Shown here piece after piece: positions 657 through 42,229 of a stretch of DNA of 42,564 bases. The stretch is from a virus (lineage: Duplodnaviria; Caudoviricetes). A model generated the notes under the pieces. It searched no databases. It was not told the DNA's origin and saw only the letters and a list, made by a program, of their open reading frames with translations. Numbering within the stretch: position 1 is the first letter of the stretch; every line of letters starts with the position of its first letter. Made by a program: the position numbers and the translations under genes. The stretch is taken from the IMG/VR virus record IMGVR_UViG_3300017700_000593, positions 1-42,564 of that record, one strand, 5' to 3'.

Positions 657-1091
657 ATGCGCAGGGAAGACGGAGAAAAGACGAAGGATAATAGCTCGAC
701 CGCAGGTGCCGGTCCCTTTCCTGCAGACCACACAGCGCCGGCTGCATCGGACAGCGCGAAGGCCATCACATGCAAGGCCCTGTGTCGTAACCACCTGAGC
801 GGGTTTGCAGAGCCATGCGCGGAAGCCTGCATCACCGGAGCGGGCGTCGCGTTCGATTGCGAGCACGCCCCCGACGTTTGGGGCAGCGACGCCCAGCACG
901 TCTTGGACGCCCTCGACCTCCCTTCTACCGCCGCCGCAGCAAGAGACATGCTCAAGGCGCTGGAGGATCTGAGCCGCTTCTGCTCGCCGTCGGCCGAATA
1001 CACGACCAAGGGCGCGAAGGCCTTCATTTGGGAATCCGCCATCGCCGCCATCGCCGCCGCCAAGGCTGCTGGCATCAAGACGGAGGGCTGA
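657..1091 (+). CDS. Hypothetical early protein (start uncertain; the N-terminus reads through a hairpin element)
   Basis: C-terminal AAARDMLKAL...AIAAAKA resembles a common small phage-protein motif. It is the first ORF after PL. Confidence 0.6.
   Translation: MRREDGEKTKDNSSTAGAGPFPADHTAPAASDSAKAITCKALCRNHLSGFAEPCAEACITGAGVAFDCEHAPDVWGSDAQHVLDALDLPSTAAAARDMLKALEDLSRFCSPSAEYTTKGAKAFIWESAIAAIAAAKAAGIKTEG
694..719 (-). repeat. Family C hairpin element, copy 1 (5'-side cassette border)
   Basis: GACCG-CAGGTGC-CGGTC-CCTTT. The 22-mer at 698-719 is identical to 9193-9214. It is preceded by a purine tract at 663-693. Confidence 0.8.
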
Positions 1092-1094
1092 GAC

Positions 1095-1424
1095 ATGGCA
1101 CCCGACACTCTCCCCTCCCCTATCCCGGTTCTAGGAGAAAGGGGGAGGTGCGACGCAGCGGCGTCGCCTAACCCGCCCAATTCCTCAACCCCTTCTGCAT
1201 CTCGCATCCAGAACACCATCGCGCTCGCAACCGAGTTTGTCGTGGTGAGCTTCTGGCAGCCAAAGAGCGGCAGCGGTGAAGGCCACTACCACCACGAGAC
1301 GTTCACCGACCAGCGCGACGCCGAGACCATGCACGCCGACTATGTGCGCGGCGAATGGGCCAAGGCCCGCGCTGTCTGCATCTTCGCCAGCCGACACGGC
1401 GTGCCGATCGGGAGGGTGCTGTGA
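1095..1424 (+). CDS. Hypothetical protein (start uncertain)
   Basis: ORF with a GTGA overlap to the next gene. The N-terminus spans a C-rich/purine junction and element C2. Confidence 0.55.
   Translation: MAPDTLPSPIPVLGERGRCDAAASPNPPNSSTPSASRIQNTIALATEFVVVSFWQPKSGSGEGHYHHETFTDQRDAETMHADYVRGEWAKARAVCIFASRHGVPIGRVL
1145..1173 (-). repeat. Family C hairpin element, copy 2
   Basis: GAGGT-GCGACGC-AGCG-GCGTCGC-CTAACC, closely similar to 6157-6186. Confidence 0.75.
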
Positions 1425-1612
1425 AGCCGCTACACCCCTTCGCCTGCGCCCGCACGCACGCCGAAGCCGTCGAGATCGAGGAATTGGTCAACGCCCTGCG
1501 CGAGTACCTGAGCGACCGCGAGGACGCCGACCACAACGGGTCGAGCTTCATCCCCAACGATGAAATGCGGCTGCTGATGCGCCTCAACGAACTGTTCCCG
1601 GAGCAACCATGA
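1421..1612 (+). CDS. Hypothetical protein
   Basis: GTG start after GGAGGG, with 4-bp overlaps on both sides. Confidence 0.7.
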   Translation: MKPLHPFACARTHAEAVEIEELVNALREYLSDREDADHNGSSFIPNDEMRLLMRLNELFPEQP

Positions 1613-2004
1613 ACATTCTTCAGCACATCGAGGCTGGGCACTACCCAAAGGACGAGAAGGACCGCGCTATCGTGCCGATGAGAAGTGGCGGCCGCGCGAC
1701 GATACTCGCCACCGATCGTGATGCTTTCAGCGGCCCGGACCGCGAGCCGATCATCGGCATGGTCGAAAATGGCAGCGTATTTTCGTGGTGGGAGTGCGGC
1801 GAGCATTCACGCCGGATGCCATCTGACTGCGACCTCCTCCCTCCCACGCCTCGCAAGGTGGAGGTGAAGCGGTATCTGGTTCCCTGCACGTCGCGCTACG
1901 CAGAGGCGACGTTCATTTCCGCCACGGCGGCCGATGAATACGCGAATGAGGCACTGAGCCGCGTCGTCGTGCTCACCGGCTCTTACGAGAAGCCGTGGTC
2001 GTGA
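1609..2004 (+). CDS. Hypothetical protein
   Basis: 131-aa ORF with an RBS (GGAG). Its stop TGA is the first triplet of element A1. Confidence 0.75.
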   Translation: MNILQHIEAGHYPKDEKDRAIVPMRSGGRATILATDRDAFSGPDREPIIGMVENGSVFSWWECGEHSRRMPSDCDLLPPTPRKVEVKRYLVPCTSRYAEATFISATAADEYANEALSRVVVLTGSYEKPWS

Positions 2005-2048
2005 CGCACTCCTCCCTGCCAGGGTCCGCCGCGAGCAAAGCGAGCCAC
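2002..2048 (+). repeat. Family A hairpin element, copy 1 (3'-side border)
   Basis: TGACGCACTCCT-N5-CCAGGGTCCGCC-GC.GA.GC.AAA.GC.GA.GC-CAC, then a C-rich tail. Confidence 0.85.
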
Positions 2049-2105
2049 CCCCTACTCGCCCAGCCCAAGGACGAAGGTGAGTTCTGGACTTCCCATCGCC
2101 AAGAC

Positions 2106-2420
2106 ATGGCCGACAGGGAGCACGTAGACGGAGTGCAGCCTACGGGAAGAAGAATCAACTGGCCTCTCGTGAGCGCTGTCGTAGCTGCAATCGTGATTGT
2201 GGGAAGCATCGCAACTGTGCGCGGTTGTCTGGCAGCAGAGCCTGACAAGCCCTTCCGCTACCAGATCCACGACGAGGCCACCGGCAAGCCCTGGGTCTCC
2301 CCCAAGGGCAAGGCGGCCCTTCCTGTCAGTAGCCCGACAGCCTGCGACCTCGACATGTCGTCCGCTGCGAACGTGGCTGTGAAGGCTACGCGGCTTTCCT
2401 GCAGGAGGGTGAGCAATTGA
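2106..2420 (+). CDS. Single-TM membrane or exported hypothetical protein
   Basis: Hydrophobic stretch WPLVSAVVAAIVIVGSIATV. Start uncertain. Confidence 0.6.
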   Translation: MADREHVDGVQPTGRRINWPLVSAVVAAIVIVGSIATVRGCLAAEPDKPFRYQIHDEATGKPWVSPKGKAALPVSSPTACDLDMSSAANVAVKATRLSCRRVSN

Positions 2421-2447
2421 GTTCGGCCGCAGCGCAGCGGCCCCTTT
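2419..2447 (-). repeat. Family C hairpin element, copy 3
   Basis: GAGTTC-GGCCGC-AGCGCA-GCGGCC-CCTTT. The downstream ACACAC..GAGGTC.TGC.ATG leader is shared with copy 5. Confidence 0.75.
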
Positions 2448-2474
2448 CGTAACGACACACAACGAGGTCTTGCC

Positions 2475-3182
2475 ATGAACACCTACCCCGAGAACGACAA
2501 TCAGTTTGAAGAAGTGACCATCGAGTCGGCAGAGCGCCATGAAGATGGCTGGGAGATCAAGCGCACCGATGGCTGGTCGCTGTTCTGCCCGCTGCACGAT
2601 GGCGAGCCCAAGGCCGGCAGCACCCTGCGCGTCTACGGCAAGGGCATCGGCTCCAGTTTCCGGGGGCTCTACATCGACGGCGCCAAGGTCTTCTATCGCA
2701 CCGAGGCCGAGGACGCCGACCACCGCGAGAACGAGCTTTACGGTGCGGACGCTGCCGACTGGCTCGCCCGATGGGACGCGGGCCGCTCGGTCTTCTCAAT
2801 CGAGATGGGCGGCATGGGTCCCGGCTACGAGCAGTGTATCCAGATCGTAGCCGCAGAAGTCCTGCGTCATCTGCTTGCCACGAAGCCCGACGCTTCCCTG
2901 TGGGCCGACAAGGACGTGTGGCGCGCGGCCCGCGACGACATCGACAAGGCGCTGTTCGCCAACCCGATGATCGACAAGCTCGGCCTGTCTGGCGCTCAAG
3001 CCGGTGCCGGCGTCAGCCTCGGCTCCCGTCTCTACATGGACGGACCACGCAAGATCATGAACACACCGGAGATCAAGGACCGCCATATCCAAGTGCAGCG
3101 GTTCTTCCCCGGCTTTGAGCAGGCCGCAGAAGGATCAGTCTCCCAGACTGAGCGCAGCGAAGGATGCACTCCCCATGCCTGA
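2475..3182 (+). CDS. Hypothetical protein; C-terminal ~22 aa derive from read-through of element R1
   Basis: 235-aa ORF with an RBS (GAGG) and typical GC3 usage. Confidence 0.85.
   Translation: MNTYPENDNQFEEVTIESAERHEDGWEIKRTDGWSLFCPLHDGEPKAGSTLRVYGKGIGSSFRGLYIDGAKVFYRTEAEDADHRENELYGADAADWLARWDAGRSVFSIEMGGMGPGYEQCIQIVAAEVLRHLLATKPDASLWADKDVWRAARDDIDKALFANPMIDKLGLSGAQAGAGVSLGSRLYMDGPRKIMNTPEIKDRHIQVQRFFPGFEQAAEGSVSQTERSEGCTPHA
3116..3169 (+). repeat. Family R hairpin element, copy 1
   Basis: TGAGCAGG...TCAGTCT-CCCAGACTGAGCGCAGCGAAGGATGCAC. Bases 3142-3169 match 5887-5914 at 27/28. C-rich tail follows. Confidence 0.9.
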
Positions 3183-3384
3183 CTCCCTTTCCCCTGTCCT
3201 GTCCAACGCCCCGAGCCTGGCATCCCGCATCCGCGCCGTTGCCGAGCTGGCTGAGGCTTCCCGCCCCGACTTCCGCCGCATCGCCTTCGACCTGTGGGCC
3301 TTGCGGATCGAGGCTGGGCGAGAGGCCGACACGCTCGACGCCCGGATGATCGACACCGCCTGCAGCCTCAAGGAGCGCGCGTGA
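3175..3384 (+). CDS. Hypothetical protein
   Basis: ATG at 3175, with a GTGA overlap to the next gene. Confidence 0.55.
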   Translation: MPDSLSPVLSNAPSLASRIRAVAELAEASRPDFRRIAFDLWALRIEAGREADTLDARMIDTACSLKERA

Positions 3385-3572
3385 CGACGCTCCAAGACAC
3401 CCCGCCTTGGTGGCGGACGGTCAAGGCCGAAACGCCCGAGCAGGCTGCCGAGTTCTGCAAGCGGCTCGGCACCGGAGAGTGCGCGGCTATCTGCCTGTCT
3501 CACATGTCCAGCAACACCACCGACGGACGCTGCCCCGAGAAAGAGCGCGTCTGGATGAAGGAGTCCACATGA
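3381..3572 (+). CDS. Small Cys-containing hypothetical protein
   Basis: AAGGAG RBS, GTG start and ATGA overlap with the annealase gene. Confidence 0.65.
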   Translation: MTTLQDTPPWWRTVKAETPEQAAEFCKRLGTGECAAICLSHMSSNTTDGRCPEKERVWMKEST

Positions 3573-4366
3573 CCACCAACAACCTCCGCATCTGGGATGC
3601 CGTCTCCAAGACGGACCCGAAGCACACGAAGGGCTTCAAGCGGGCCGGTGGCTTCCAGGGTACGGCCATCAAGCCTATCTGGCTGACCAAGCGGCTGACG
3701 GAGCAGTTCGGGCCGGCAGGCTCCGGCTGGGGCATGCATCAGCCGGAGTTCCAGACCGTCAACGCTGGTGACGAGATTCTCGTTTTCTGCACGGTCGCCC
3801 TTTGGTATCGCGAGGGCGAAATGCAGGCCGTGGTCTACGGCGTCGGCGGCGACAAGGTGATGGGCAAGAACAAGTACGGCCCCTTCACCAACGACGAAGC
3901 CTTCAAAGCATCCTACACCGACGCGCTGTCCAACGCCATGAAGCAGATCGGCATGGGCGCCGACATCCACATGGGCCTGTTCGAGGACGAGAAGTACGTC
4001 CGCGAGACGACGCGCGAGTTCGCCAACGGCTCGCCCCGGCCGACAAACTCAAGCCCGACCGACTTTGTGGACGAGGCCAAGAAGGACGGCCTCATCAACG
4101 GCGATGGGAGCAAGTCACAGTACGAAGTCGACAAGCTCAAGAAGGCCGTCGACAACGACTGGATCATCGTCAACACGACCCCGAAGGGCAAGGAGGACCA
4201 GGCCTTCGCCTATCTCGAGATGGCCCGCAATCCCGACGACGTGGCGAAGATCACGAAGAACAACGCGGCGACCATCGAAGGCGCGACGTGGCAGGCTGAG
4301 TTCGAGCAGTCCGTCGACAACCTCCTGCGCTGGTTCGAGAAGCAGTCAGCCCCGGCTCTGCAATGA
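3569..4366 (+). CDS. Rad52/Rad22 (Sak)-like single-strand annealing recombinase
   Basis: Motifs RLTEQFGPAGSGWG and DEAFKASYTDALSNAMKQIGMGADIH. RBS AAGGAG. Located next to NinB. Confidence 0.75.
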   Translation: MTTNNLRIWDAVSKTDPKHTKGFKRAGGFQGTAIKPIWLTKRLTEQFGPAGSGWGMHQPEFQTVNAGDEILVFCTVALWYREGEMQAVVYGVGGDKVMGKNKYGPFTNDEAFKASYTDALSNAMKQIGMGADIHMGLFEDEKYVRETTREFANGSPRPTNSSPTDFVDEAKKDGLINGDGSKSQYEVDKLKKAVDNDWIIVNTTPKGKEDQAFAYLEMARNPDDVAKITKNNAATIEGATWQAEFEQSVDNLLRWFEKQSAPALQ

Positions 4367-4785
4367 CCGACGAACGCCGCAAGATCGTGCTGGGCAGCGC
4401 GACGCACCGGCAATTCGTCGGCTCCCTCGTGGCGTCATCCCCGCCCGGCTGCGTGGTCACGATTGCGCCGCCCGGCCGGACGCTGGACCAAAACGCCCTC
4501 TTCCACTCCCTCTGCGGCGAGATCGCCAAGGCCAAGCCGACATGGAACGGCTTCCACATGGACGCCGAGGACTGGAAGGCCCTGCTGGTCGTCTCCCATG
4601 CCGTGGCGACGAAGGAGGACATCGGCATGCGCCTGGTGCCGGATCTTGAAGGCCATGGGCTGGTGCAGCTCCGCGAGTCGAGCGCCCGCATGTCCAAGGC
4701 GCGGGCCACCAGCCTGATCGCGTATGTCGAGGCATGGGCAGTCAGCAACGAAATCCCCCTGAAGGTCACCCATGAAGAAGTTTAG
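4363..4785 (+). CDS. NinB-like recombination protein
   Basis: RTLDQNALFH...WKAL...RESSARMSK...LIAYVEAWA fits the NinB pattern. Confidence 0.8.
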   Translation: MTDERRKIVLGSATHRQFVGSLVASSPPGCVVTIAPPGRTLDQNALFHSLCGEIAKAKPTWNGFHMDAEDWKALLVVSHAVATKEDIGMRLVPDLEGHGLVQLRESSARMSKARATSLIAYVEAWAVSNEIPLKVTHEEV

Positions 4786-5287
4786 ATCACCCGCCGACTG
4801 GACGCCCAAGCAGCGTCATTCCGCCTATACTGACAAGAGCGGTGGCCCTGATGCGTGCTGGCCGTGGGTCGGTGCGCGCAACAAGGCCGGGTATGGCCTC
4901 TTTGGCCTAGATGGCGGCTGCGTTCTGGCGCATCGCGCGGCGTGGCTGTTTGCCAACGATCATTTCCCCATGACGCTCAAGGTGCTTCACCGCTGCGACA
5001 ACCGTGCCTGCCAGAACCCCGCGCATCTGTTCCTCGGAACTCAAGCCGACAACGTCGCGGACATGCACGCCAAGGGGCGGCAGGGTAAGGTTTTCGGTGA
5101 GCAGCATCACAAGACGACCCTGACAATTGATCAGGTCCGCGCCATCCGCGCCGACTCGCGCTCGCAGTCCACCATTGCCCGCGCATACGGCGTCCACCAG
5201 ACGACAGTAGGGAACATCAAACGCGGTCGGACGTGGGCCACGGCGCAGGACATTGCCATCACCGTACCGGAGGCTGCCTCGGCATGA
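4772..5287 (+). CDS. HNH homing endonuclease (HNH_3 type with C-terminal HTH)
   Basis: CWPW..GYG..AHR..VLHRCDNRACQNPAHLFLGTQADN. Confidence 0.9.
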   Translation: MKKFRSPADWTPKQRHSAYTDKSGGPDACWPWVGARNKAGYGLFGLDGGCVLAHRAAWLFANDHFPMTLKVLHRCDNRACQNPAHLFLGTQADNVADMHAKGRQGKVFGEQHHKTTLTIDQVRAIRADSRSQSTIARAYGVHQTTVGNIKRGRTWATAQDIAITVPEAASA

Positions 5288-5655
5288 GCGACCGCGCCAA
5301 CTTCACCAAGCCCGTCAAGCGGCAGGCCCTGCGCCGCTCAGGCCAGCTCTGCGAGGCCGTCGGCACTTGGTACGGCCTTCAGCCCGCCCAGCGCTGCAAT
5401 GCCCCGCTCGCGTATGGGGTGGAGTTCGATCATGTGATTCTTGACGCCAACTCCAAGGACGACAGCCTGGAGAACTGCGCGGCGGTTTGCGTTCGCTGCC
5501 ACGCATTCAAAACCCGCAAGCACGATACGCCCTTGGCAGCCAAGACCGTGCGGCAGCAGGACATGGCCCTCGGCATTCGCAAGCGCTCTACGTGGCCGGG
5601 CGGACGGCATTCCAAGCTCAAGAAGAAGGTTTCAGGAGAGGTGGTAGCGAGATGA
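5284..5655 (+). CDS. HNH endonuclease (zinc-binding type)
   Basis: CEA...EFDHVI...DSLENCAAVCVRCHAFKT. Confidence 0.85.
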   Translation: MSDRANFTKPVKRQALRRSGQLCEAVGTWYGLQPAQRCNAPLAYGVEFDHVILDANSKDDSLENCAAVCVRCHAFKTRKHDTPLAAKTVRQQDMALGIRKRSTWPGGRHSKLKKKVSGEVVAR

Positions 5656-5861
5656 CCGACATTGAAAGACTGGCAGACGCCATACTGAGGCTCACCGAGA
5701 GTGATTCCGGCTGCGTCTCAATCAAGGCCCAAGGCGGCGGCGCGACGATCAATATCCACCTGAACCTGACCGTTCACACAGCCCCGCAGATGTGGAAGCC
5801 GACCTTCGCCCTCTTCAGGTCGAAGCTTCTGCGCTTGGACAAACACTCTGCCCGGCCATGA
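5652..5861 (+). CDS. Hypothetical protein
   Basis: ATGA overlap with the preceding gene. Its stop TGA begins element R2. Confidence 0.6.
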   Translation: MTDIERLADAILRLTESDSGCVSIKAQGGGATINIHLNLTVHTAPQMWKPTFALFRSKLLRLDKHSARP

Positions 5862-5914
5862 GCAGGAAGGTCCGTAATGCAGGACACCCAGACTGAGCGA
5901 AGCGAAGGATGCAC
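5859..5914 (+). repeat. Family R hairpin element, copy 2
   Basis: TGAGCAGGAAGGTC...ATGCAGGAC-A-CCCAGACT.GA.GC.GAA.GC.GA.AG-GATGCAC. Confidence 0.9.
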
Positions 5915-5920
5915 CCCATC

Positions 5921-6817
5921 ATGACCCCTCCCAAAGTATTCGGCGACGAAGTGATTGAAGCTGCACGACGGATAGTCGCGTCGCTGACGTTCCCGCCCAA
6001 GCGGCCGACCATAGCCGAGCTAGAGGAAATCCTGTCGCAGCCCGATGCGCCGCCGGTCCACATCAAGCCGGACGGCACAATCGGCGTCGGAGAAAGCGAT
6101 TCGCTGATCGTCGCTCGTTCCCTTCTTTCCGCAGTAGAGGAGTGCGAGAAGGAATTGAGGTGCGACGCAGGTGCCGTCGCCTTACCTGCATTGGAAGCAT
6201 GGCGTCCCATGGCGAGCGCGCCGCGAGACGGCACCGACATTCTGTTGCGGTTCAAGTCGCGGCGTTGCGCGATTGCGTGGGGCAACCATCACGATCTGAT
6301 CTGGGCCGATGCGTCCGATGACAGCGAACTGCCCGACCCCGTCGCGTGGCAGCCGTTGCCCGCACCGGAGCAGGAAAGCAGCGCCGACGAACGAGACGGG
6401 AGCGGTAGGGAGGCGCAAGCCGACCGCGTAGCCACTACCCCCACCCCTATCGAGCAGGGGCAATCAGAAGCGGGGGGATGGCGATCAATGGACAGCGCGC
6501 CGAAGGACGGGACCGAGATCTGGGCCTACACCACCGAAGGCTACCAGCGTGTCGTGCGCTGGCAGAAAGACCTTGGGCCATCTAGCGACGATCCCGGCCA
6601 CGACGCCGGCTGGGCATCCGATTGCGGCGGCACGTATCCAGGCTGCTTCTATCACGAGCCGCAGCCGCCACACGATCCACCCCTACGCTGGATGCCCCTT
6701 CCTGCCTCGCCTGATCTGGAGCAGGACGCAGAGGATGCAGGACCACCGAGCCACGAAGTGGCGAGCACAACCCATACCTCCCGCTCCCTGAAGCTGGAGG
6801 AAGAGGAAAGAGGATAG
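5921..6817 (+). CDS. Mosaic protein with two DUF551-like domains joined by translated hairpin elements
   Basis: WRPMASAPRDGT...WQPLPAP and WRSMDSAPKDGT...WMPLPASP, each followed within a few codons by GAGCAGG (EQ). Confidence 0.7.
   Translation: MTPPKVFGDEVIEAARRIVASLTFPPKRPTIAELEEILSQPDAPPVHIKPDGTIGVGESDSLIVARSLLSAVEECEKELRCDAGAVALPALEAWRPMASAPRDGTDILLRFKSRRCAIAWGNHHDLIWADASDDSELPDPVAWQPLPAPEQESSADERDGSGREAQADRVATTPTPIEQGQSEAGGWRSMDSAPKDGTEIWAYTTEGYQRVVRWQKDLGPSSDDPGHDAGWASDCGGTYPGCFYHEPQPPHDPPLRWMPLPASPDLEQDAEDAGPPSHEVASTTHTSRSLKLEEEERG
6157..6186 (-). repeat. Family C hairpin element, copy 4
   Basis: GAGGT-GCGACG-CAGGTGC-CGTCGC-CTTACC, just before DUF551 domain 1. Confidence 0.8.
6368..6435 (+). 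repeat. Family R hairpin element, copy 3 (diverged)
   Basis: GAGCAGGAA...GG.GA.GGC.GCAA.GCC.GA.CC...GTAGCCAC, then TACCCCCACCCC. Confidence 0.7.
6719..6768 (+). repeat. Family R hairpin element, copy 4
   Basis: GAGCAGG...ATGCAGGAC..C.GA.GCCAC.GAA.GTGGC.GA.G-CAC, then a C-rich tail. Confidence 0.8.
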
Positions 6818-6845
6818 TGCTCGCTCGCTTTCAGCGAGCCTGTGT
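6813..6845 (-). repeat. Family D hairpin element, copy 1 (5'-side border)
   Basis: Minus strand reads ACACAG-GCTCGCT.GAA.AGCGAGC-GAGCAC-TATC, then a CT-rich tail. Confidence 0.75.
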
Positions 6846-6905
6846 CTCCCTAGTTTTATCAGTTCTGACAGATCACCGACCCGACAGACCAGAGAGGCTT
6901 TGCAA

Positions 6906-7445
6906 ATGCCCAACCACGTCATGAACGAAGTCACGTTCACCGGCCTTAGCGTCACCCAGAAGGACGCAATCGTTGCAGCGGTGCGTGGTGAGCAGGAGAT
7001 CGACTTCGCAACGCTTCTCCCCCTGCCGCTCAATCTCTGGTGGGGCAGCGTCAGCAGCTTGCACGAGAAGGCTTTCCCCGGCACGGCGCTTGATTGGTGT
7101 TCCTCGAACTGGAGCACCAAGTGGAACGCCTACGGGCTCAACCAGGGTGGCCGCTACCAGTCTGTCGAGGAATCGCCAGACGGCCTGATCCTGCGATTTC
7201 AAACCGCATGGTCGCCGCCCAGGGGGTGGCTGGTCGCGCTGTTCAACAAGTTCAAGGTCTCGTTCACGTACAACTGGCTGGACGAAGGCCGAGAGCGCGC
7301 CGTCAGTGGTCACTTCGACTACGCGGCCTTGATGCACGACCGCGCCGCCCAGCCGTGGGCCGAGATCGCCGCCGATGACGAAACCCAGCTCCGCATGTTT
7401 CGCCTCCTGTGGGGCCGCGACTCGCTCGAAGACGACGCCGCCTGA
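6906..7445 (+). CDS. DUF1281/YubB-like ferredoxin-fold protein
   Basis: MPN..N...DF..LLPLP...W...NWSTKWN...FQTAWSPP pattern. Confidence 0.75.
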   Translation: MPNHVMNEVTFTGLSVTQKDAIVAAVRGEQEIDFATLLPLPLNLWWGSVSSLHEKAFPGTALDWCSSNWSTKWNAYGLNQGGRYQSVEESPDGLILRFQTAWSPPRGWLVALFNKFKVSFTYNWLDEGRERAVSGHFDYAALMHDRAAQPWAEIAADDETQLRMFRLLWGRDSLEDDAA

Positions 7446-7448
7446 CCA

Positions 7449-7510
7449 TGATTCGGAAAGCCTCACATGCAGCACGAGATGGGTCAAAGCCGTCATCGGC
7501 TTTGGAACAC
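7449..7510 (+). repeat. Family R' hairpin element, copy 1
   Basis: TGATTCGGAAAG...ATGCAGCACGAGATGGGT-CAAAGCCG.TCAT.CGGCTTTG-GAACAC, then a C-rich tail. Confidence 0.8.
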
Positions 7511-7540
7511 CTATCTCCCCTCTCCCTTAAGGGAGTGAAT

Positions 7541-7580
7541 GATAGCTCGCTCCGGTCGCTACGCTCCCTCTCGCCTGTGT
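7541..7580 (-). repeat. Family D hairpin element, copy 2
   Basis: Minus strand reads ACACAGGC..GG.GA.GC.GTA.GC.GA.CC-GGAGCGAGC-TATC. It has the same GATAG...GCCTGTGT flanks as D1. Confidence 0.75.
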
Positions 7581-7610
7581 AGTTCTAATTCTGCCGTCTA
7601 GGAGACACCG

Positions 7611-8042
7611 ATGCCAGACCTGACCGCCGCGCCCCGCACGGGCTCACACAGGCCTATCCAGGGCCGCAGGCGTGGCCACAGGCCCGTCAGCCTTGAAGGC
7701 CTGCCCAGCCCCGAGGAATTGGCCCAGCAGCCCCACAAGGGCGACGACGCCGATCGCTTCACGCTGTACACTGCCCAGCAGGTCGTGGCCGAGACCAAGG
7801 ACGTGAAGCTCTGCATCACGTTCGGTGAAGGCCCCGGCGACGTGATGAAGATCCGCGAGCAGGCCGACATGGTGATTGCGGGTATGCGGGCGATTATTGA
7901 AAAGACGCGCCAGCATGACATCGGATCAATTCGGCAGCGGATCGAGGCTCGCGCCGAGGCCGCCTCGCTGGGCCGGGCACTCTCCCGGTTCAACGGGCGC
8001 ACGCCGCACGGCGAGTGGAAGCCGAAGGGCGAGCGGTCTTGA
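7611..8042 (+). CDS. Hypothetical protein
   Basis: AGGAG RBS. The stop TGA begins TGATTCGGAAG, a partial R' element. Confidence 0.7.
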   Translation: MPDLTAAPRTGSHRPIQGRRRGHRPVSLEGLPSPEELAQQPHKGDDADRFTLYTAQQVVAETKDVKLCITFGEGPGDVMKIREQADMVIAGMRAIIEKTRQHDIGSIRQRIEARAEAASLGRALSRFNGRTPHGEWKPKGERS

Positions 8043-8221
8043 TTCGGAAGACACGCAAGGCGTGGTGTGCGCCGTGCAATTGGCGAAACTATATATTATA
8101 CGGCCTTGTTTTGATACAATGCCGGGCAACCACCTTGATTCCGCGTCAAGTTCTGGCCTGTCCCCCTGACTCACACGCGTTATCGTTTCCGTCTCGTTCC
8201 AACCAGATGTAGGCCCCCAAC

Positions 8222-8416
8222 ATGAGCAACATGCCCGTGAGATACACCGCCGACTCCGGCTTCCCGCAGCGAATCGCCTCCTGTCAGGCAGGCTTTTCAG
8301 ACGGCACGGTAGCGCCTGCCCGTCCCATCGGCGGCGGCCCGTTCTGGCAGCGCTGGCAGCTTGCATGGGCGGTGTTCACCGGACGCGCCGACGCGCTGTT
8401 CTGGGTGCGCCAGTGA
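8222..8416 (+). CDS. Small phage hypothetical protein
   Basis: PARP.G...RWQLAWAVFTGRADALFW resembles a recurrent phage mini-protein. GTGA overlap with the next gene. Confidence 0.7.
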   Translation: MSNMPVRYTADSGFPQRIASCQAGFSDGTVAPARPIGGGPFWQRWQLAWAVFTGRADALFWVRQ

Positions 8417-8850
8417 GCGCCGAGCCCACCCAGATCGCGCGCCACTTCCTGGAGAAGGAAGAAGACGGCAACGCGTCAGACTTCGTCTCGATTGGCGACC
8501 TGAAGAAGCTGGCGCGCGCCCACCTCACCGCCGCCAGCGAGAAGGACGCAGCCTATCTAGAGCGCAACCGGATGGTGGCGCTGCTGGCGGGGATCTACCC
8601 CTCCGGCATCGCGCGCACGAACATCCCCGGCTGGCTGCCTGAGTGGCACGGCTGCGTCTACATCGACCTGCCGACGGGGCAAGCAAGCTGGCACTACCAC
8701 GACAGCCACGCCCACCTGTTCGCGCATCTGCCGGCCTACACGAAGGCGTGGGATGGGCACACGACCGATCTGAAGTATATGCGCGTGGCAGCGCTGGCCT
8801 CGTCCACCGCCGAGGATCGCAGACTCGCCCGACGTGGGCAGATGTACTGA
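8413..8850 (+). CDS. WDGH-motif phage protein
   Basis: YLERNR...IDLPTGQASWHY...WDGHT motif. Confidence 0.75.
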   Translation: MSAEPTQIARHFLEKEEDGNASDFVSIGDLKKLARAHLTAASEKDAAYLERNRMVALLAGIYPSGIARTNIPGWLPEWHGCVYIDLPTGQASWHYHDSHAHLFAHLPAYTKAWDGHTTDLKYMRVAALASSTAEDRRLARRGQMY

Positions 8851-8861
8851 CGGAGGAAGTC

Positions 8862-9083
8862 ATGAGCGAAGATAGACGCGAGGTGATGGTTTACACGGCG
8901 GGCCTTCTGCTTTGGGGCGCTCTCCGTGATCACTTGCGGGCCTACGCATTCGACGGAGAGCAGGTCGAGTGGATCGAGTCGCGCGGTTGGATCAGCCGAG
9001 AGTTTCGGGTGCGCGCCCCGCGCTCGGTTCATCAAAGGCTGCACGCACTCATTGACGAGATGAACAAGCAGCCTGCGACATGA
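8862..9083 (+). CDS. Hypothetical protein
   Basis: GGAGG RBS. The stop TGA begins element R5. Confidence 0.75.
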   Translation: MSEDRREVMVYTAGLLLWGALRDHLRAYAFDGEQVEWIESRGWISREFRVRAPRSVHQRLHALIDEMNKQPAT

Positions 9084-9134
9084 GCAGGAAGGTCTAGCCT
9101 CAGTCTCCCCGGAGCGCTGAAAGCGCGTAGGCAC
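9081..9134 (+). repeat. Family R hairpin element, copy 5
   Basis: TGAGCAGGAAGGTCTAGC..TCAGTCTCC-CC.GGA.GCGCT.GAA.AGCGC.GTA.GG-CAC, then a C-rich tail. Confidence 0.9.
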
Positions 9135-9186
9135 CCCCTCCTCCGTCTCCTAGACTGCATTACACACGATGAGGGAATGATAGAAT

Positions 9187-9214
9187 GAGGTGGACCGCAG
9201 GTGCCGGTCCCTTT
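9187..9214 (-). repeat. Family C hairpin element, copy 5
   Basis: GAGGT-GGACCG-CAGGTGC-CGGTCC-CTTT, preceded by a purine tract. Confidence 0.85.
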
Positions 9215-9242
9215 GCCGCTACACACACGATGAGGTCCTGCA

Positions 9243-9521
9243 ATGAGCGGTCTGACGATCTGGAAGATGGAGCTGAAGCCCGGCGTGGCGGCCTACGATC
9301 TGCCGAAGGGCGCGCGCATTCTGTCTGTCGCCTTCCAGCGAGGCGCGCCGCAAATGTGGTTCATGTGCAACCCCTCGGCCGAGCACGAGAAACGGATCAT
9401 CGTCTTCACCGGGACCGGCCACGAAATCGAGGAAATTGGCGAGCACAAGTTTGTCGGCACGATGATGACCGAAGATCAGAATTTCGTCTTCCACGTCCTT
9501 GAGCGCGTCAGCGCGTGGTGA
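9243..9521 (+). CDS. Conserved-type phage hypothetical protein
   Basis: IWK..L....LPKGA.ILSV..Q.....W........GTGH....FVGT...FVFHV pattern. Bracketed by elements C5 and R6. Confidence 0.85.
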   Translation: MSGLTIWKMELKPGVAAYDLPKGARILSVAFQRGAPQMWFMCNPSAEHEKRIIVFTGTGHEIEEIGEHKFVGTMMTEDQNFVFHVLERVSAW

Positions 9522-9567
9522 GCAGGAAGGTCTAGCTGAAGGACTCCCCGGAGCGAAGCGGAGGCAC
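9519..9567 (+). repeat. Family R hairpin element, copy 6
   Basis: TGAGCAGGAAGGTCTAGC (18/18 identical with R5)...CC.GGA.GC.GAA.GC.GGA.GG-CAC. Confidence 0.9.
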
Positions 9568-9610
9568 CTCTACTTCCCGCCCTTCACGAACGATGACAGA
9601 GCGTCAGGCC

Positions 9611-11098: not shown

Positions 11099-11192
11099 GT
11101 CAGACACTGCGTCTCTCCACGGGTGGGGCATCGGCCGTCCTATGTGCGGATTCGCACTGACTCTTTAACGCTTGTCCCGGTACGCTGGTTCT

Positions 11193-11276
11193 AGCCATTG
11201 GTCCGCAGCCTCCTTGCTGTGGGTCTCTGGTCAGGTCCCCGGCCGCTTCGTGAGAGTGGTCGGGGGCCGCTGCTTT
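11193..11276 (+). ncRNA. Putative cis-antisense sRNA over the translation start of a 32-aa minus-strand leader ORF (11100-11198)
   Basis: Two hairpins pair fully only on the + strand, using G-U wobbles. A TACGCT -10-like box lies at 11181-11186. The same layout occurs at 36861-36935. Confidence 0.45.
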
Positions 11277-11319
11277 ACGCTCTTACGCTCTGAACTATCG
11301 CGTGCTATCTCTCCGGGAC

Positions 11320-11332
11320 GGGGGGGGGGGGG
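11320..11332 (+). repeat. Poly-G homopolymer (G13)
   Basis: 13 consecutive G upstream of the methyltransferase operon. Confidence 0.9.
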
Positions 11333-11349
11333 CAAGGGAGAGGGACATC

Positions 11350-11439
11350 ATGCAAATAGGGTTCTTGCTTTTCGAGATCGGCCTGTTTCTCTTTTTCTGC
11401 TATGGCGTGATAACTTGGGGGCACGGGATCACTCAATGA
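11350..11439 (+). CDS. 29-aa hydrophobic peptide coupled to the methyltransferase
   Basis: MQIGFLLFEIGLFLFFCYGVITWGHGITQ, with GGAGAGGG RBS and an ATGA overlap. Confidence 0.5.
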   Translation: MQIGFLLFEIGLFLFFCYGVITWGHGITQ

Positions 11440-12128
11440 ACGCAACCCAGGTCGCCCACACGAAGACGCTGCAAACCGAGGATCGTATCCGCTCCAACAG
11501 CAGCCTGCTCACTGAGCAGATGCGGTGGCTGGAGACACTGCCGGTCGACTTCCAGACCATCCTTGATGTCGGCTGCGGCGCGGGCTTCCATGCAAAGTGG
11601 TTCCATGGCCGCGGGCACAAGGTCACGGCCACCGACTGGAGCACTGATGCCTTCTTGTTCGCTGACGAGATCGAGGCCGTTGCGTCGGACATCCTGCAGT
11701 ACCTGCCCACCAAGGAATACGACGCCATCGTCTGCTCGCATGTCTTGGAGCACTTTGCCGACCCAGGGACGCTGATGCGCAAGCTGCGGTCTCTTCTCAA
11801 GCCCGGCGGCTACCTGTTCCTTGTCGTCCCGGGTTACACGCCTCTTTCCTGCAATGGCCACTGGCACACGGGCTGGAACATCACCCAACTGGGCGGCTGG
11901 CTGGTCTCCATGGGCTTCGATTGCCGGGAGGGCACTTTTGCCCACCTTGGCATCAACGTCTGCGGCTTCGGGCGGAAGTCCGATGAGGTTCCGTCCGACG
12001 CTCACTTCGACCTCCCACGCATCCTGCGTTTCATGCCTGCCCCCTTCAAGAAAGCCGAATTTTTCCAAGGCACCGACCATCTCCTGAGAGCAGACCTGAC
12101 ATGGGTCGACGCTGATATGTGCGAATAG
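11436..12128 (+). CDS. Class I SAM-dependent methyltransferase (moron, opposite strand to the late genes)
   Basis: ILDVGCGAG, YDAIVCSHVLEH, LLKPGGYLFLVVP. Confidence 0.9.
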   Translation: MNATQVAHTKTLQTEDRIRSNSSLLTEQMRWLETLPVDFQTILDVGCGAGFHAKWFHGRGHKVTATDWSTDAFLFADEIEAVASDILQYLPTKEYDAIVCSHVLEHFADPGTLMRKLRSLLKPGGYLFLVVPGYTPLSCNGHWHTGWNITQLGGWLVSMGFDCREGTFAHLGINVCGFGRKSDEVPSDAHFDLPRILRFMPAPFKKAEFFQGTDHLLRADLTWVDADMCE

Positions 12129-17305: not shown

Positions 17306-19050
17306 TGCGCCGGCTCCCAATTGCTCTTGTCAGCCGGGTTGCCGCCTTTGAAGCGATAGCCGTCCATAACTGACCCGGGCTGGGGTGCGCCGCCTTGGGC
17401 CGGCGCGGTGGTGCCGGCCGGAGGCTGGTTCACCGTGGGGTTGAGCGTGTAGGTCTTGCCGGCAGCGCGCGTCATGCCCTCGACGGCGAGTTGGCGGTTC
17501 TTCATCTTCTGGGCGACCACGCTCTCCGCGTCGCCCGGCTGCGGGAAATACTGCTTGTCGGCTGCGGCGTATTCCTGATCGCTGATGACCGCGCCCGACT
17601 CACGGCGAAGCTGGGCGTTAATGAAGTCGTCCTTGGCCTGCCGGAACTTCTGGTAGCCCTCGCTCTGGGCGTAGTTGGCCCCAGGCACGCCGACGCCGAA
17701 CACCTTGGAGTCGAGCGCGCGGCCCTTGGTGGACAGGCCCTCCTTCTCGTTCTGCCCCAGGATTCGGAAGCTGTTGGTCATGCGATCGGCAAAGACGGCC
17801 GCGTCCGACTGCTCCTTCGTCATCGGCTTGTTAGCTTCGCGGCGATCGTGCTCGGCAGCCTCTGCCGTGCGCTGCTCGGCGGTCTTGCTCTGGTCGTAGG
17901 CTCGCGTGTCCTGCGTCTTGGCGCGCTCCTGCACGTAGGCCGCCTGCGCTTCCTGTGCCTTCTGGACCAGTGCCAGCGCGCGCTCACGGTCGCCGCCGGC
18001 TCGAGCCTGCTGCGCCTGCTGCATCAAATGCTGGGCTGCGGGGCTGACCTCGGGTATCGTCGGCGCGGGCGGGGCCTGCGGAGCCGCCTGCGGCTGCGGC
18101 ATCGCTCCCTCGGCACCCTGCGCGAGCTGCACCGGAGTCTGCTGCTGGGCCTGCGGCTGTCCACCAGTGGCCGCCATGAACGTGTCCGCAGTGACACCCT
18201 GCGGTAGGCCGCCCTTCTCTTTCCGGGTGATGGCATCCAGCAACGTGGCCGCCACGGCCGGGTCCTTCATCACCTCCCCCAAGGGCATCCCGGGGTTGAT
18301 GCCGGTCCCTTCTGCCACCTGACTGATATACTGCTGGGTGTTGTTCTCGTTCGGCGGCGCCCACTTGGCGATGGCTTGAGCCACCGTCATGTTGGGGTTC
18401 TGCTTGATGTAGGCGCCGAGGTTCTGGACCATCGCGTTAGCGCCCTGCTGCGGGCTGCCGAAGGTCGCAAAGCCGTTCTGTGGCGCTCCCTCGCCCGGGA
18501 AGCCGACGCCCGCGCGGATGTTGCCGAGGTTGTTGTTGAAGGCACCGGGGGCAGGTGTGCCGCTCGGTAGCGGCGTTACGTCGATGGTGAGGCCCGGCTG
18601 ATTGCCGCTTGGGCCGGGCTGACCAGCGCCGCCACCGCGGCTGACGCCAGACGCATCCAGCTTCGTGTCGAGAAGGCCGTTCTTGCGGTCGTCGGCAATC
18701 TTCTGGGCAAGCGTCTGGGCATAGAACGGGGCGAGGATATTCGGGTCACCGCCCGGCTCGTTCAGGATGGCATTACGCGAGGCCTCGTCCTTGGCGCCCA
18801 GGGCACGCGCGAGTTTGTCCGTCGTCTTGGTCTGCGTTTCCTTCTGCTCCCGTTCGGCCTGCCCCTCGAAGAAGCCGCCCACGCCGCCCTGCAGCGCACG
18901 TGCAAGCCCCTCCAGCGGGCTTTGCACCGGAGCCGTCGAGGCGCCATGCTGCATGAGCGCCTGACCATAGCGGCGCGAGTTCTCCGCAGGGTCGAACTGC
19001 TGGCGCTGGCGCTGCTGCATCATCAGGGCGGCAACAAGGGCATCGCTCAT
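17302..19050 (-). CDS. Internal virion/ejection protein with a lysozyme-like domain
   Basis: NNLGNIR...FATF.SPQQG..AM...L..Y...TVAQAIAKWAPPNENNTQQY. Confidence 0.75.
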   Translation of the reverse strand: MSDALVAALMMQQRQRQQFDPAENSRRYGQALMQHGASTAPVQSPLEGLARALQGGVGGFFEGQAEREQKETQTKTTDKLARALGAKDEASRNAILNEPGGDPNILAPFYAQTLAQKIADDRKNGLLDTKLDASGVSRGGGAGQPGPSGNQPGLTIDVTPLPSGTPAPGAFNNNLGNIRAGVGFPGEGAPQNGFATFGSPQQGANAMVQNLGAYIKQNPNMTVAQAIAKWAPPNENNTQQYISQVAEGTGINPGMPLGEVMKDPAVAATLLDAITRKEKGGLPQGVTADTFMAATGGQPQAQQQTPVQLAQGAEGAMPQPQAAPQAPPAPTIPEVSPAAQHLMQQAQQARAGGDRERALALVQKAQEAQAAYVQERAKTQDTRAYDQSKTAEQRTAEAAEHDRREANKPMTKEQSDAAVFADRMTNSFRILGQNEKEGLSTKGRALDSKVFGVGVPGANYAQSEGYQKFRQAKDDFINAQLRRESGAVISDQEYAAADKQYFPQPGDAESVVAQKMKNRQLAVEGMTRAAGKTYTLNPTVNQPPAGTTAPAQGGAPQPGSVMDGYRFKGGNPADKSNWEPAQ

Positions 19051-33119: not shown

Positions 33120-33133
33120 GTTTTTCTCCGGGT

Positions 33134-34324: not shown

Positions 34325-34373
34325 GTGGCTCCGCTTCGCTCCGCGGCGGACCTTGGCGGGCAGGAGTGCGTCA
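34325..34373 (-). repeat. Family A hairpin element, copy 2
   Basis: Minus strand reads TGACGCACTCCT-GCCCG-CCAAGGTCCGCC-GC.GGA.GC.GAA.GC.GGA.GC-CAC. The TGA is the stop of 34371-34565. Confidence 0.85.
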
Positions 34374-34565
34374 TGGGCGGGTCCGCTGGTATCTCGGGCG
34401 ATACGGCGCGGGCCATTCTTCACGCATCGGCGCCCTGTCGCTCACGGCGATATCAACGCCGCGGGCGTCCAGCATGTCCTGAATGGTCATCGCGTACCCC
34501 ATGTGGGCCGTATGCCCGGCCATGCGGAACAGCCACTCCAAGGCCAACAGTTCCTTCTCGCTCAT
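34371..34565 (-). CDS. Hypothetical protein
   Basis: MSEKELLALEWLF... ORF between two hairpin elements. Confidence 0.6.
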   Translation of the reverse strand: MSEKELLALEWLFRMAGHTAHMGYAMTIQDMLDARGVDIAVSDRAPMREEWPAPYRPRYQRTRP

Positions 34566-34601
34566 CCTGCCTGTTCCTGCTGTGGGGTGGGGGAGGTGGA
34601 G

Positions 34602-34659
34602 GTGCATCGGCGATGACGCCGATGTCCCATCTCGCGCTGCATCTAAACCTTCCGCCTCA
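34602..34659 (-). repeat. Family R' hairpin element, copy 2
   Basis: Minus strand reads TGAGGCGGAAGGTT..ATGCAGCGCGAGATGGGA-CATCGGCG.TCAT.CGCCGATG-CAC, then CTCCACCTCCCCCACCCC. Confidence 0.85.
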
Positions 34660-37001: not shown

Positions 37002-37337
37002 TCATGACAGCCTCACGTCGACGCCGTGAATGGCCTTCATCAAGTGCTGGCGGATGCGGAACGCCGTGTCGGAATGGCCCTTGGAATCTTCAACGACCGT
37101 CTGGCCCTTCTCGACGTAGCGGAAGTCGGCCTTGAACCGCAGCGCTGGGCGAGCGCGCTTCTCGCCTGCGATCTTCACCGACGGGGCGAGCTGGTACGGG
37201 ACCTGGCGCTCGAGCTTGCTGATCTGGCCGCCACGCTCGAGCCGCCGCAGATCACCCCATCGCTTCGCCTCGCGCTTGCTGTCGAAGCGAACGCCATCAA
37301 CCACGGTCGGGACGTTGCGGTACTTGGAGCGGGTCAT
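37002..37337 (-). CDS. DUF1064-family putative nuclease
   Basis: SKYRN....VDG.RFDSKREA.R...L.RQV.Y.L...ADF.Y...VVEDSKG. Confidence 0.85.
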   Translation of the reverse strand: MTRSKYRNVPTVVDGVRFDSKREAKRWGDLRRLERGGQISKLERQVPYQLAPSVKIAGEKRARPALRFKADFRYVEKGQTVVEDSKGHSDTAFRIRQHLMKAIHGVDVRLS

Positions 37338-37549
37338 CGGGCCAGCCAATACGGCGAGCAGTTCGGGGTGCCGCCTGCGTCGAGCGTGCCTCGGTCGTAG
37401 GCGACCATGATGATGTTGCAGAGCCAGCCGTGAAACTGGCTGCCCTCCTGCACGTCGCAGTCCACGACGCCGAGCTTCTTCAACTCGGCACCCCACGCCA
37501 CGGCATCCATGCCGAGCCGGTTGAGTTGCTGCACTGCGCTCTCGCTCAC
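37334..37549 (-). CDS. Hypothetical protein whose RBS is supplied by element A3
   Basis: AGGAGTGCGACA-GTG start. Confidence 0.7.
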   Translation of the reverse strand: MSESAVQQLNRLGMDAVAWGAELKKLGVVDCDVQEGSQFHGWLCNIIMVAYDRGTLDAGGTPNCSPYWLAR

Positions 37550-37719
37550 TGTCGCACTCCTGCATCCAGGGTCCGCCCCGAGCGAAGCGAGGCACCACTC
37601 AACGCCACAATCTTCGTGGTGATGTCGCGCATGGCCTCCCAAGCCTTGGGCTTTCTGGTGATCTTCCAGAGTCTTCGCGCTTTCGCATGCTCACGACGGA
37701 GGCGGCGTAACTCGGTCAT
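37546..37719 (-). CDS. 57-aa basic protein reading through element A3
   Basis: Manual translation MTELRRLRREHAKARRLWK..., with ATGA and GTGA overlaps on both sides. Confidence 0.5.
   Translation of the reverse strand: MTELRRLRREHAKARRLWKITRKPKAWEAMRDITTKIVALSGASLRSGRTLDAGVRQ
37550..37595 (+). repeat. Family A hairpin element, copy 3 (5'-side border, antisense to the gene)
   Basis: TGTCGCACTCCT-GCAT-CCAGGGTCCGCC-CC.GA.GC.GAA.GC.GA.GG-CAC. Confidence 0.85.
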
Positions 37720-38384: not shown

Positions 38385-38644
38385 GGCTTGCCTGCCAGTC
38401 CGCAGTAGCCTTCGGTCGGCGGCACGTCGCGCACCCACCGCGATACGCTGCCGCGAGGCACGATGTACCACCCCTCGCCTTCCGGGCGCTGCTGGTCGCC
38501 GTAGCCGCACTGCTCGCGTTCTGCGGGAATCCACCGCCACGCCATCTTGCAGGCAGAGCCGACGCAGTACCGCAGCATACCCTTGGTGCTGCCGCAGTTT
38601 TCGGGGCCGATGCAAAGCTGCTTTCTGGCTTCTTCTTCGGTCAT
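38381..38644 (-). CDS. Cys-rich phage hypothetical protein
   Basis: MTEEEA...C...CVGSACKMAWRW...GYCGLAGKP. RBS and ATG come from element A4. Confidence 0.8.
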   Translation of the reverse strand: MTEEEARKQLCIGPENCGSTKGMLRYCVGSACKMAWRWIPAEREQCGYGDQQRPEGEGWYIVPRGSVSRWVRDVPPTEGYCGLAGKP

Positions 38645-38696
38645 GTCGCACTCCTGTTAGCCAAGGTCCGCCGCGAAGCGCGCAGCGCGTAGCCAC
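38644..38696 (+). repeat. Family A hairpin element, copy 4
   Basis: TGTCGCACTCCT-GTTAG-CCAAGGTCCGCC-GC.GAA.GCGC.GCA.GCGC.GTA.GC-CAC, then a C-rich tail. Confidence 0.85.
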
Positions 38697-41373: not shown

Positions 41374-41679
41374 CTAGGCGGCCTTTGTGTTCTTGGCGCG
41401 GTCGGACTTGTGCTGCGCGGCGCGGATGAACGCCGCGATGTCGGCGCAGGCATTCAGGTAGCCGATTTGATTCGGCAACTTCGCCTTCGACGCCGCCATC
41501 CGCACGAGTTCTTCCATGATCGCGTTGCGCGCCAAGGTGCTGCCGGCGTGCATGAGTGTCGCGACCATCTCACCGCCAGATGCAGAAGGGCCTTTAGCGG
41601 CATGCTCCAAAGGAGCCGCCCGCTGCGGCTGAACTCCAATTTCCTCTTCCCTATGGTCGAGAGAGACGGTGGAGGTCAT
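41374..41679 (-). CDS. Hypothetical protein
   Basis: ATGA overlap with the upstream gene. Confidence 0.55.
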   Translation of the reverse strand: MTSTVSLDHREEEIGVQPQRAAPLEHAAKGPSASGGEMVATLMHAGSTLARNAIMEELVRMAASKAKLPNQIGYLNACADIAAFIRAAQHKSDRAKNTKAA

Positions 41680-42223: not shown

Positions 42224-42229
42224 GCGGCG

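Follow-up and report, generated by a model that had tools for sequence, protein, structure and literature searches.

Structured junction elements at accessory-gene borders in the early arms of a podophage-type genome, and their possible action as single-stranded DNA

The window analyzed here is the whole of the viral record IMGVR_UViG_3300017700_000593 (42,564 nucleotides; Duplodnaviria, Caudoviricetes), which represents a complete circular phage of 42,441 bp with a terminal repeat of 123 nt. The genome is laid out as two divergent early arms and a podophage-type structural module, and its capsid is nearest that of a Bradyrhizobium phage (48.6%), which suggests an alphaproteobacterial host. 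It is contained in a single sequencing run, a freshwater metagenome that may be its source; no RNA dataset was listed as containing it, which does not bear on expression. The early arms carry short hairpin elements beside accessory genes, here called cargo genes, which an earlier note had sorted into families C, A, R, R' and D and had interpreted as the ends of mobile single-gene cassettes. Twenty-one elements are counted in the window, one C-type more than had been listed in that note, and the seven TGA stops and nine 5'-end coordinates that it quoted are all present in the sequence. The elements and their cargo genes are given below, where the strand of an element is that of its outward, folded reading, G001, G410 and L071 are phage-like contigs that also carry elements, and model matches refer to a covariance model described further on.

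690..722, minus strand: C1, hairpin-only element in the 5' part of open reading frame (ORF) 657-1091
1143..1172, minus strand: C2, in-frame insert in the N-terminal part of ORF 1095-1424, missing from the homologues in G001, L071 and G410
2001..2056, plus strand: A1, full element that provides the stop codon of ORF 1609-2004
2417..2450, minus strand: C3, 5' element, conserved in position in G001, where the cargo gene is a different one
2475..3182, plus strand: cargo gene of a widespread family of about 215 aa, its final 20 or so residues read through R1
3117..3172, plus strand: R1, 3' element
5860..5916, plus strand: R2, 3' element at an ATGA overlap, missing behind the orthologous gene in G001
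6155..6185, minus strand: C4, inside ORF 5921-6817, ahead of its first phrog_924 domain
6365..6436, plus strand: R3, degenerate 3' element after the first phrog_924 domain, read through in frame, with a partial model match (E 0.34) and a similar element in G001
6719..6768, plus strand: R4, 3' element after the second domain
6815..6860, minus strand: D1, 5' element, tail to tail with R4; the D-type also occurs in G001 and G410
6906..7445, plus strand: cargo gene with a DUF1281_C domain
7452..7510, plus strand: R'1, degenerate 3' element with a 72% inverted match to R'3 over 54 nt
7542..7590, minus strand: D2, degenerate 5' element
8040..8090, plus strand: R'2, weak remnant of uncertain membership, with no model match
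9082..9134, plus strand: R5, full 3' element
9187..9215, minus strand: C5, 5' element, tail to tail with R5
9243..9521, plus strand: cargo gene, DUF7352
9520..9567, plus strand: R6, full 3' element
34325..34374, minus strand: A2, 3' element in the right arm
34596..34658, minus strand: R'3, 3' element, a model match from outside the training set (E 0.068)
37334..37549, minus strand: cargo gene of 71 aa, inserted jointly with A3; the site is empty in G001
37549..37595, plus strand: A3, 5' element without a 3' partner
38643..38696, plus strand: A4, 5' element whose inner arm gives the ribosome-binding site and ATG of ORF 38381-38644
41605..41638, plus strand: C6, the additional C-type element, absent from the first list

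Elements occupy 15 of the 42 early-arm gene junctions and none of the 28 late or structural ones (Fisher p=1.8e-4; junctions counted on our own gene list for the window), so that the claimed absence from the structural genes is borne out. C4 and R3 lie inside an ORF, 234 and 381 nt away from a gene end, at domain borders. The domain between these two had been labeled DUF551; it has no Pfam match, and PHROGs places it in phrog_924, of unknown function. Multi-domain ORFs formed by in-frame read-through of elements are found in the window (5921-6817) and in the contig G004 (about 32300-33700), and in the latter one short spacer is repeated three to four times between such domains.

The anatomy of the element was drawn from 53 non-redundant copies on 13 contigs, selected by their inner arm only. 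Families A, R and R' are one element of about 55 nt. Family D, which by inspection shares this layout with a diverged inner arm, probably belongs to the same element, and family C, again by inspection, is the apical hairpin alone, a hybrid being present in G005. Read outward, the element starts with an inner motif (GCAGGAAGGT, GCGGAAGGT, GTCGGAAGGT or GTCGCACTCCT) followed by 7-8 nt, and continues with a core such as GGACTCC, a 2-bp basal stem, G(N)A opposite G(N)A, and a stem of 2-5 bp of free sequence; it ends with a triloop, usually GNA or ANA, then CA and a G-poor run. The conserved inner arm is about 30 nt long and carries a stop codon, an open frame or, in A-types in the 5' orientation, a ribosome-binding site with ATG, while C-types finish in a short CCTTT run. 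The G(N)A/G(N)A internal loop is found in 45 of the 53 elements, a GNA or ANA triloop in 33, and CA after the hairpin in 51; G makes up 4-8% of the first 10 nt of the final run, against 32%. The C-rich tail of the description first given proves to be recipient DNA in at least one clean comparison with an empty site.

The basal pair is retained in all 53 elements (30 C-G and 23 G-C, with 23 double changes). Of the alignment cells, 91% are paired, compared with 53% in shuffles, a control inflated by related sequences, and 20-45% in slid controls, which keep the relatedness. This anatomy predicts a fold of single-stranded DNA, on the strand that leads outward from the gene; 13 of the 24 elements that are antisense to the mRNA keep the triloop on that outward strand. 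Mini-hairpins of the type d(GCGNAGC) resist 3' exonucleases, have little affinity for the single-strand DNA-binding protein (SSB) and are far less stable in RNA form (PMC13037366). Covariation between guide and cleavage site of the IS608 type was sought by eye and not seen. Long-range RNA pairing between 5' and 3' elements was considered and rejected, the partners often coming from different subfamilies, and Rfam gives no relevant match in the whole window, with one unrelated hit at E 0.63.

These features are specific enough to recover the elements. When the inner arm is left out and a descriptor asks only for the 2-bp stem, G(N)A/G(N)A, stem, loop, CA and G-poor run, 7 window sites are recovered, where Markov controls give 0.05 and 469 kb of other phage loci give none. 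The descriptor for C-types recovers 6 window sites where 0.08 are expected, one of them C6, overlooked at first; an earlier, stricter hairpin descriptor lacking the CA and tail condition did no better than its control (3 against 2.56). The covariance model, trained on the 53 elements, gives 10 window matches at E<0.1, all within the two early arms; nine of these belong to the training set and R'3 lies outside it. The degenerate elements R3, R'1, R'2 and D2 score poorly in this model or not at all.

The arrangement of the elements is also ordered. Adjacent pairs point in opposite directions in 39 of 54 cases (p=0.0015) and in the same direction in the other 15, a strong tendency to alternate where a strict orientation rule had been proposed. 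Inner ends that face each other are separated by at least 118 nt in 21 of 21 cases, and tail-to-tail pairs lie less than 70 nt apart in 12 of 18. Many genes have one element only, and G410 holds three tandem 5' elements without a 3' partner. The flanks of complete pairs are purine-rich on the left and pyrimidine-rich on the right, with no target-site duplication apparent in the complete pairs on reading the sequence; the sole exception is a 3-nt TGG repeat at the A3 insertion. An origin of the tail-to-tail spacers as fold-back duplications was rejected, their self-complementarity not being significant (p about 0.1).

In relatives, genes are gained, lost or replaced at the elements, which are likely the points where accessory genes come in and are exchanged. 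Breaks in gene content had been expected at the boundary between GCAC and tail; they do fall at the elements, but at both ends of them and most often at the inner one. R2 and A1 start where the orthologous upstream genes of G001 and G002 stop, and C3 is kept in G001 with a different cargo behind it. A doublet 93% alike over 168 nt is common to L086 and L093, which differ in the genes on either side of it, G003 and G005 have a common element with differing upstream genes, about 186 nt extra in L098 relative to L095 stop at the inner motif, and the comparison of G410 with the window breaks there too. The cargo gene at 2475-3182 belongs to a tight, unannotated family of about 215 aa with 666 homologues. 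None of 119 homologues has an element-derived C-terminus; most end at FP-x-x-AA, exactly where R1 starts with codons for EQAA, which suggests that a few bases in common served for the joining.

Among the outer-end breaks, A3 and the 71-aa gene interrupt the final codons of a gene which in G001 adjoins the resolvase without a gap, with the left junction at the CAC end and the recipient's own coding sequence in the place of the tail, a comparison made by reading the sequences and not by global alignment. An outer break is likewise seen where the element at G005-2480 adjoins a G run also found in L095, where different elements follow the same upstream gene (L098/G005 and G410/L071), and in differences of 9-14 nt beside the outer end of otherwise matching copies. 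The idea that tails are purely non-templated additions is contradicted by the A3 empty site, and short variable stretches beside the CA remain. Among the relatives, several cargo genes encode DNA methyltransferases.

Outside the window, pattern scans of viral, metagenome and genome collections find true elements in 15 other phage-like contigs (G001-G005, G410, L071, L076, L078, L086, L093, L095, L098, L111 and L116). Duplicates had been dropped before counting (L114 is the window's own contig, and L046/L047/L080, L084/L100, L102 and L103 duplicate other loci), and A-type elements are covered poorly by such scans. The covariance model also detects copies on which it was not trained, among them three in G410 (E 1e-9 to 2e-6). 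Judged by a missing hairpin and tail, chance matches made up 9 of 12 loci, 1 of 5 contigs, 21 of 22 loci, 29 of 43 and 15 of 18 in five pattern scans, and G007:C363 and L134 were set aside as chance as well. In bacterial chromosomes, an exact-pattern scan gave matches without hairpin and tail at 21 of 22 loci, the one real locus being a phage-like contig, and 400 sampled genomes of the class of G006 gave no exact-pattern match, a scan that a diverged host family would escape. Three DNA queries returned nothing beyond chance from named phages and plasmids, and the DUF7352 cargo has no relative among viral contigs. L071, which is phage-like and has early genes of alphaproteobacterial type, has been assigned to a metagenome-assembled genome of Planctomycetia, probably by mis-binning. 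A non-coding stretch downstream of a GapR-like gene is conserved in four relatives (L071 3960-4170, L095 2818-3003, L098 1409-1580 and L047 1620-1900) and looks like a structured RNA or regulatory region.

Two genes of the left arm are of interest as a possible catalyst:

3569..4366, plus strand: single-strand annealing protein with a predicted Rad52 fold, the candidate general catalyst, outside any cassette
4363..4785, plus strand: NinB/Orf recombination mediator, following the annealase

The predicted structure of ORF 3569-4366 resembles Rad52 (Foldseek E 1e-6 to human RAD52), a likeness that a profile search of solved structures missed and the fold search found. Rad52-like phage recombinases are known to shuffle genes via short, diverged homology (PMC3945230). 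Pfam and PHROGs scans recognize no integrase or tyrosine recombinase among the 68 window ORFs, and a Y1 HUH domain is absent from five of five phage records searched; nor was a reverse transcriptase found, in line with the earlier reading that no integrase, HUH protein or reverse transcriptase is recognizable here. Integrase-like genes, read by eye, are present in G001, G002 and G004 and in the window there is none. The annealase position is occupied in other carriers by a Rad52_Rad22/Erf-like protein (L116) or by unrelated genes (a PD-(D/E)XK nuclease in G002, an unnamed family in G410), so that no single annealase is common to the carriers. Conversely, 29 other loci reached via the annealase (L002-L030) hold no element by model or descriptor, and the elements therefore do not track this gene family. 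An all-against-all comparison of the carriers gave no common recombinase-like gene, and no dedicated enzyme, for which the earlier note had proposed to look, is among the genes they share.

The remainder of the genome adds several observations of its own. Endonuclease genes of the HNH_3 type are numerous for a 42-kb genome, with five related copies (four with Pfam matches, the fifth recognized by similarity) and one other HNH gene; none of the six is bracketed by elements, and one lies inside the structural module on the opposite strand.

4772-5287, 21974-22423, 31336-31782, 39083-39610, 40319-40861 and 5284-5655: HNH genes

At 32382-34297 a TylF-type methyltransferase adjoins a 387-aa protein without Pfam or PHROG match; the latter is common to the window, G001, G003 and G004, the methyltransferase to the window and G003, and the pair is possibly a clade marker, perhaps for surface or capsid modification. 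Two stretches forming an inverted 44-nt match (42227-42270 and 582-625) enclose the repressor gene over the contig end; they are likely the paired operators or promoters of the immunity region. Between the tail and lysis genes, 11172-11940 holds a methyltransferase-like ORF and an AT-richer non-coding stretch. The non-coding leader after the resolvase gene is conserved (window 36880-37000, G001 about 18610-18740, L146 4060-4150) and contains a promoter-like TGCTACA box and a GC-rich hairpin; in G410, an element is joined to its start.

These observations can be accommodated by junction elements that act on single-stranded DNA and are joined by general annealing, a reading that we favor tentatively and rate at somewhat under an even chance. 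Phage DNA would become single-stranded during recombination-coupled replication, allowing the mini-hairpin to form a cap that resists nucleases and is poor in SSB, close to the strand's 3' end. The joining itself may be carried out by a general annealase, here the Rad52-like protein with NinB, and no dedicated recombinase would be needed. In one type of joint, the short free end past the CA would anneal to purine-rich, Shine-Dalgarno-like runs at the borders of recipient genes, which could produce co-oriented insertions with variable tails. In the other, the inner arm would pair with its counterpart in a second element, or by way of a few bases in common with a gene start or end, and thereby swap the cargo. 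The translation signals of the inner arm (stop, ribosome-binding site with ATG, or open frame, depending on orientation) would keep the new joints viable. The folding strand, the positions of the elements and the breaks in gene content are observed; hairpin protection, targeting by the free end and inner-arm swapping are inferred and would be the working parts of such a scheme.

Of the mobile single-gene cassettes of the earlier note, gene turnover at the elements is supported; mobility was not observed, and the strict two-ended cassette is only one of the arrangements seen, given the inner-end breaks, the recipient-derived tail, the genes with one element and the absence of any repeated combination of cargo and ends. 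Doubtful, but possible, is a wider proposal of a recombinase-free cassette system, in which a gene lying between folded caps, or behind one, would become a fragment that is protected, primes itself or is ready to anneal, and seeks out Shine-Dalgarno-like border runs, the caps themselves spreading as selfish ends and building mosaicism by gene and by domain.

Several points weigh against annealing of single-stranded ends. A pyrimidine tetraloop on the outward strand, with the purine loop on the mRNA strand, is present in 9 of 24 5' elements and 0 of 29 3' elements, and a pure single-stranded DNA model leaves these loops unexplained. The near-invariant CA and the sequence-conserved inner arm resemble a protein recognition site and would favor a dedicated factor. 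The breakpoints were read by hand in relatives that are mostly 40-85% identical, and their boundaries are therefore approximate; moreover, the window and G001 differ at element-free junctions too, such as those around NinB/HNH and ORF 3381. The same cargo with the same ends was not found at a second locus in the comparisons. No cassette-removing joint was seen in the contigs of the run holding the window, and contigs cannot show rare forms. Finally, several carrier contigs are short and may not be independent genomes.

A dedicated factor is provided for if the elements are REP-like non-autonomous ends, bound as folded strands by an endonuclease or strand transferase of the host or a helper (HUH Y1/RAYT type or other) that cuts at the inner end or after the CA and inserts single elements or element-gene units. 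This is unlikely on balance, although the strand-specific hairpin with its irregular stem, the sharp sequence limits at both ends, the near-invariant CA and complete pairs without an apparent target-site duplication would all suit it, and TnpAREP binds one strand only and reads bulges and loops, one member cutting CT and CA that flank the hairpin (PMC8266576). Against it, the folded strand has no GT(A/G)G tag 5' of the hairpin, the five records searched hold no Y1 gene, and neither the genome scan (one of 22 loci real, a phage-like contig) nor 400 sampled genomes of the class of G006 (exact pattern only) showed chromosomal copies or an enzyme gene flanked by these ends, in a sample from which the host may be missing. 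Next in order of probability, and also unlikely, are priming sites, at which a host primase or primosome would start at the hairpin, so that a gene inside an inward pair would prime itself on both strands and could be amplified, with the copies recombined afterwards. The geometry suits inward priming through the cargo, the tail-to-tail doublets under 70 nt apart resemble paired ssi sites, the run rich in pyrimidines that lies 3' of the hairpin could serve as template for a primer starting with a purine, and GNA mini-hairpins are present in the G4 origin and in RSF1010 ssiA (PMC13037366); priming alone, however, does not explain the inner-end joints, and two element-bearing queries have no match in named phages or plasmids. 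Annealing, an HUH-like enzyme and priming would alike make these junction elements that act on single-stranded DNA.

Two further explanations are less probable still. It is improbable that the elements are selfish dispersed repeats (MITE- or REPIN-like singlets and tail-to-tail doublets) surviving where they are harmless, with gene swaps as a by-product of shared homology. The whole doublet common to L086 and L093 between different genes, the in-frame elements inside ORFs, often degraded or one-ended, and the 15 adjacent pairs of equal orientation are what such repeats would leave; the distance of at least 118 nt that always separates facing inner ends, the orientation-specific stop or start signals of the inner arm, the arrival of A3 together with a gene and the lack of significant self-complementarity in the doublet spacers speak against them. 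Least probable is that they are RNA-level regulatory cassettes (PeSL-like pause, antitermination or processing signals) doubling as portable homology. All elements lie in early transcribed arms, the purine tetraloops of nine 5' elements are on the mRNA strand, C-types end in the CCTTT run and one sigma-70-like site precedes C5. Tandem G·A forms in RNA too. Yet 5' and 3' ends read the same element in opposite senses, terminator-like sites number 2 where 6.9 are expected and promoter-like sites 3 where 1.1 are, no Rfam family fits, and the triloop type is favored in DNA (PMC13037366).

It has long been an open question how temperate phages, without the help of long homology, set single foreign genes precisely and correctly oriented at gene borders, and the joints described here carry a defined, covarying 55-base structure that is open to synthesis and direct testing. 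The literature, covered mostly in open-access form and without supplements, yielded no description of this element family, which is as far as could be searched undescribed, structurally well defined and tied to gene turnover. In their fold, the elements resemble REPs, ssi sites, attC sites and Streptomyces telomeres, while at least one defining feature of REP, attC and telomere fails.

With REP/REPIN and RAYT (TnpAREP) systems they have in common a small strand-specific hairpin with an irregular stem, bulged or mismatched, singlets and inverted doublets, in-frame gene insertions and a presumed action on single-stranded DNA (PMC3733652; PMC6006769; PMC8266576). Unlike these, they have no GTAG/GTGG tag on the folded strand (in REPs it lies within 0-2 nt 5' of the hairpin; in the elements, ACTCC, CCAC or CGCC stand 5' of the foot, with GTGG/GTGC on the opposite strand), possess a conserved 30-nt arm outside the hairpin, face cargo genes with their inner ends, and in exact-pattern scans were not found in chromosomes or around a transposase. 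CGTC starts only some 5' elements, about 30 nt from the hairpin, and lacks the 8-9 bp stem of CGTC-REPs. The target-site duplication that goes with the terminal inverted repeats of MITE/DDE ends was not seen in complete pairs, the TGG repeat at A3 being the one exception.

Like ssi signals and other DNA mini-hairpins (phage G4 origin, RSF1010 ssiA/ssiB, N4 promoters), the elements show GNA-loop hairpins (33 of 53) read on one strand and paired on opposite strands (PMC13037366). They differ in having many copies per genome at gene borders, with one hairpin each and no cognate primase encoded. Integron attC sites are defined by RYYYAAC/GTTRRRY cores around a long imperfect palindrome. The elements have no such cores, stems of 2-5 bp plus 2 bp, both orientations and no IntI; they are similar in being folded single-stranded sites beside single promoterless genes, with a variable apical part and, in G410, tandem arrays of one orientation, and integron cassettes are also known in phages (PMC9892861). 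The 3' overhangs of Streptomyces telomeres have GNA loops with sheared G·A on the outward 3'-end strand, at both ends of the unit (PMC5449611), but consist of several palindromes in place of one hairpin and end in GGG in place of a G-poor run; the elements are moreover internal, and no Tap or Tpg was recognized in Pfam and PHROGs scans. As in Rad52-like phage mosaicism, a predicted Rad52-fold annealase and NinB/Orf are encoded and short homology is found at joints, although its abstract describes no conserved structured junction element (PMC3945230).

In the way they work, the elements are most like the PeSL cassettes of T4-type phages, direct repeats of a sigma-70 promoter, a terminator hairpin and a Shine-Dalgarno site, which are likewise short, limited to plastic regions beside ORFans, and mark gene turnover by recombination without a known dedicated enzyme (PMC2839356; PMC4122927). 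The location at points of gain and loss in plastic regions is the same, yet the promoter, terminator and orientation features fail. By consensus scan the elements are neither promoters nor intrinsic terminators: only one of the promoter-like sites lies beside an element, an alphaproteobacterial promoter type being able to escape the consensus, and terminator-like sites are fewer than expected. As to excised mini-circles, a further PeSL feature, the assembled contigs show no corresponding joints. In place of one direct upstream copy per gene, most adjacent pairs are opposed, so that both orientations surround genes, and the fold is strand-specific and of the DNA type. If the reading given here is true, these elements would be a second solution, based on single-stranded DNA, beside PeSLs and integrons, and would account for in-frame domain shuffling in small phage proteins.

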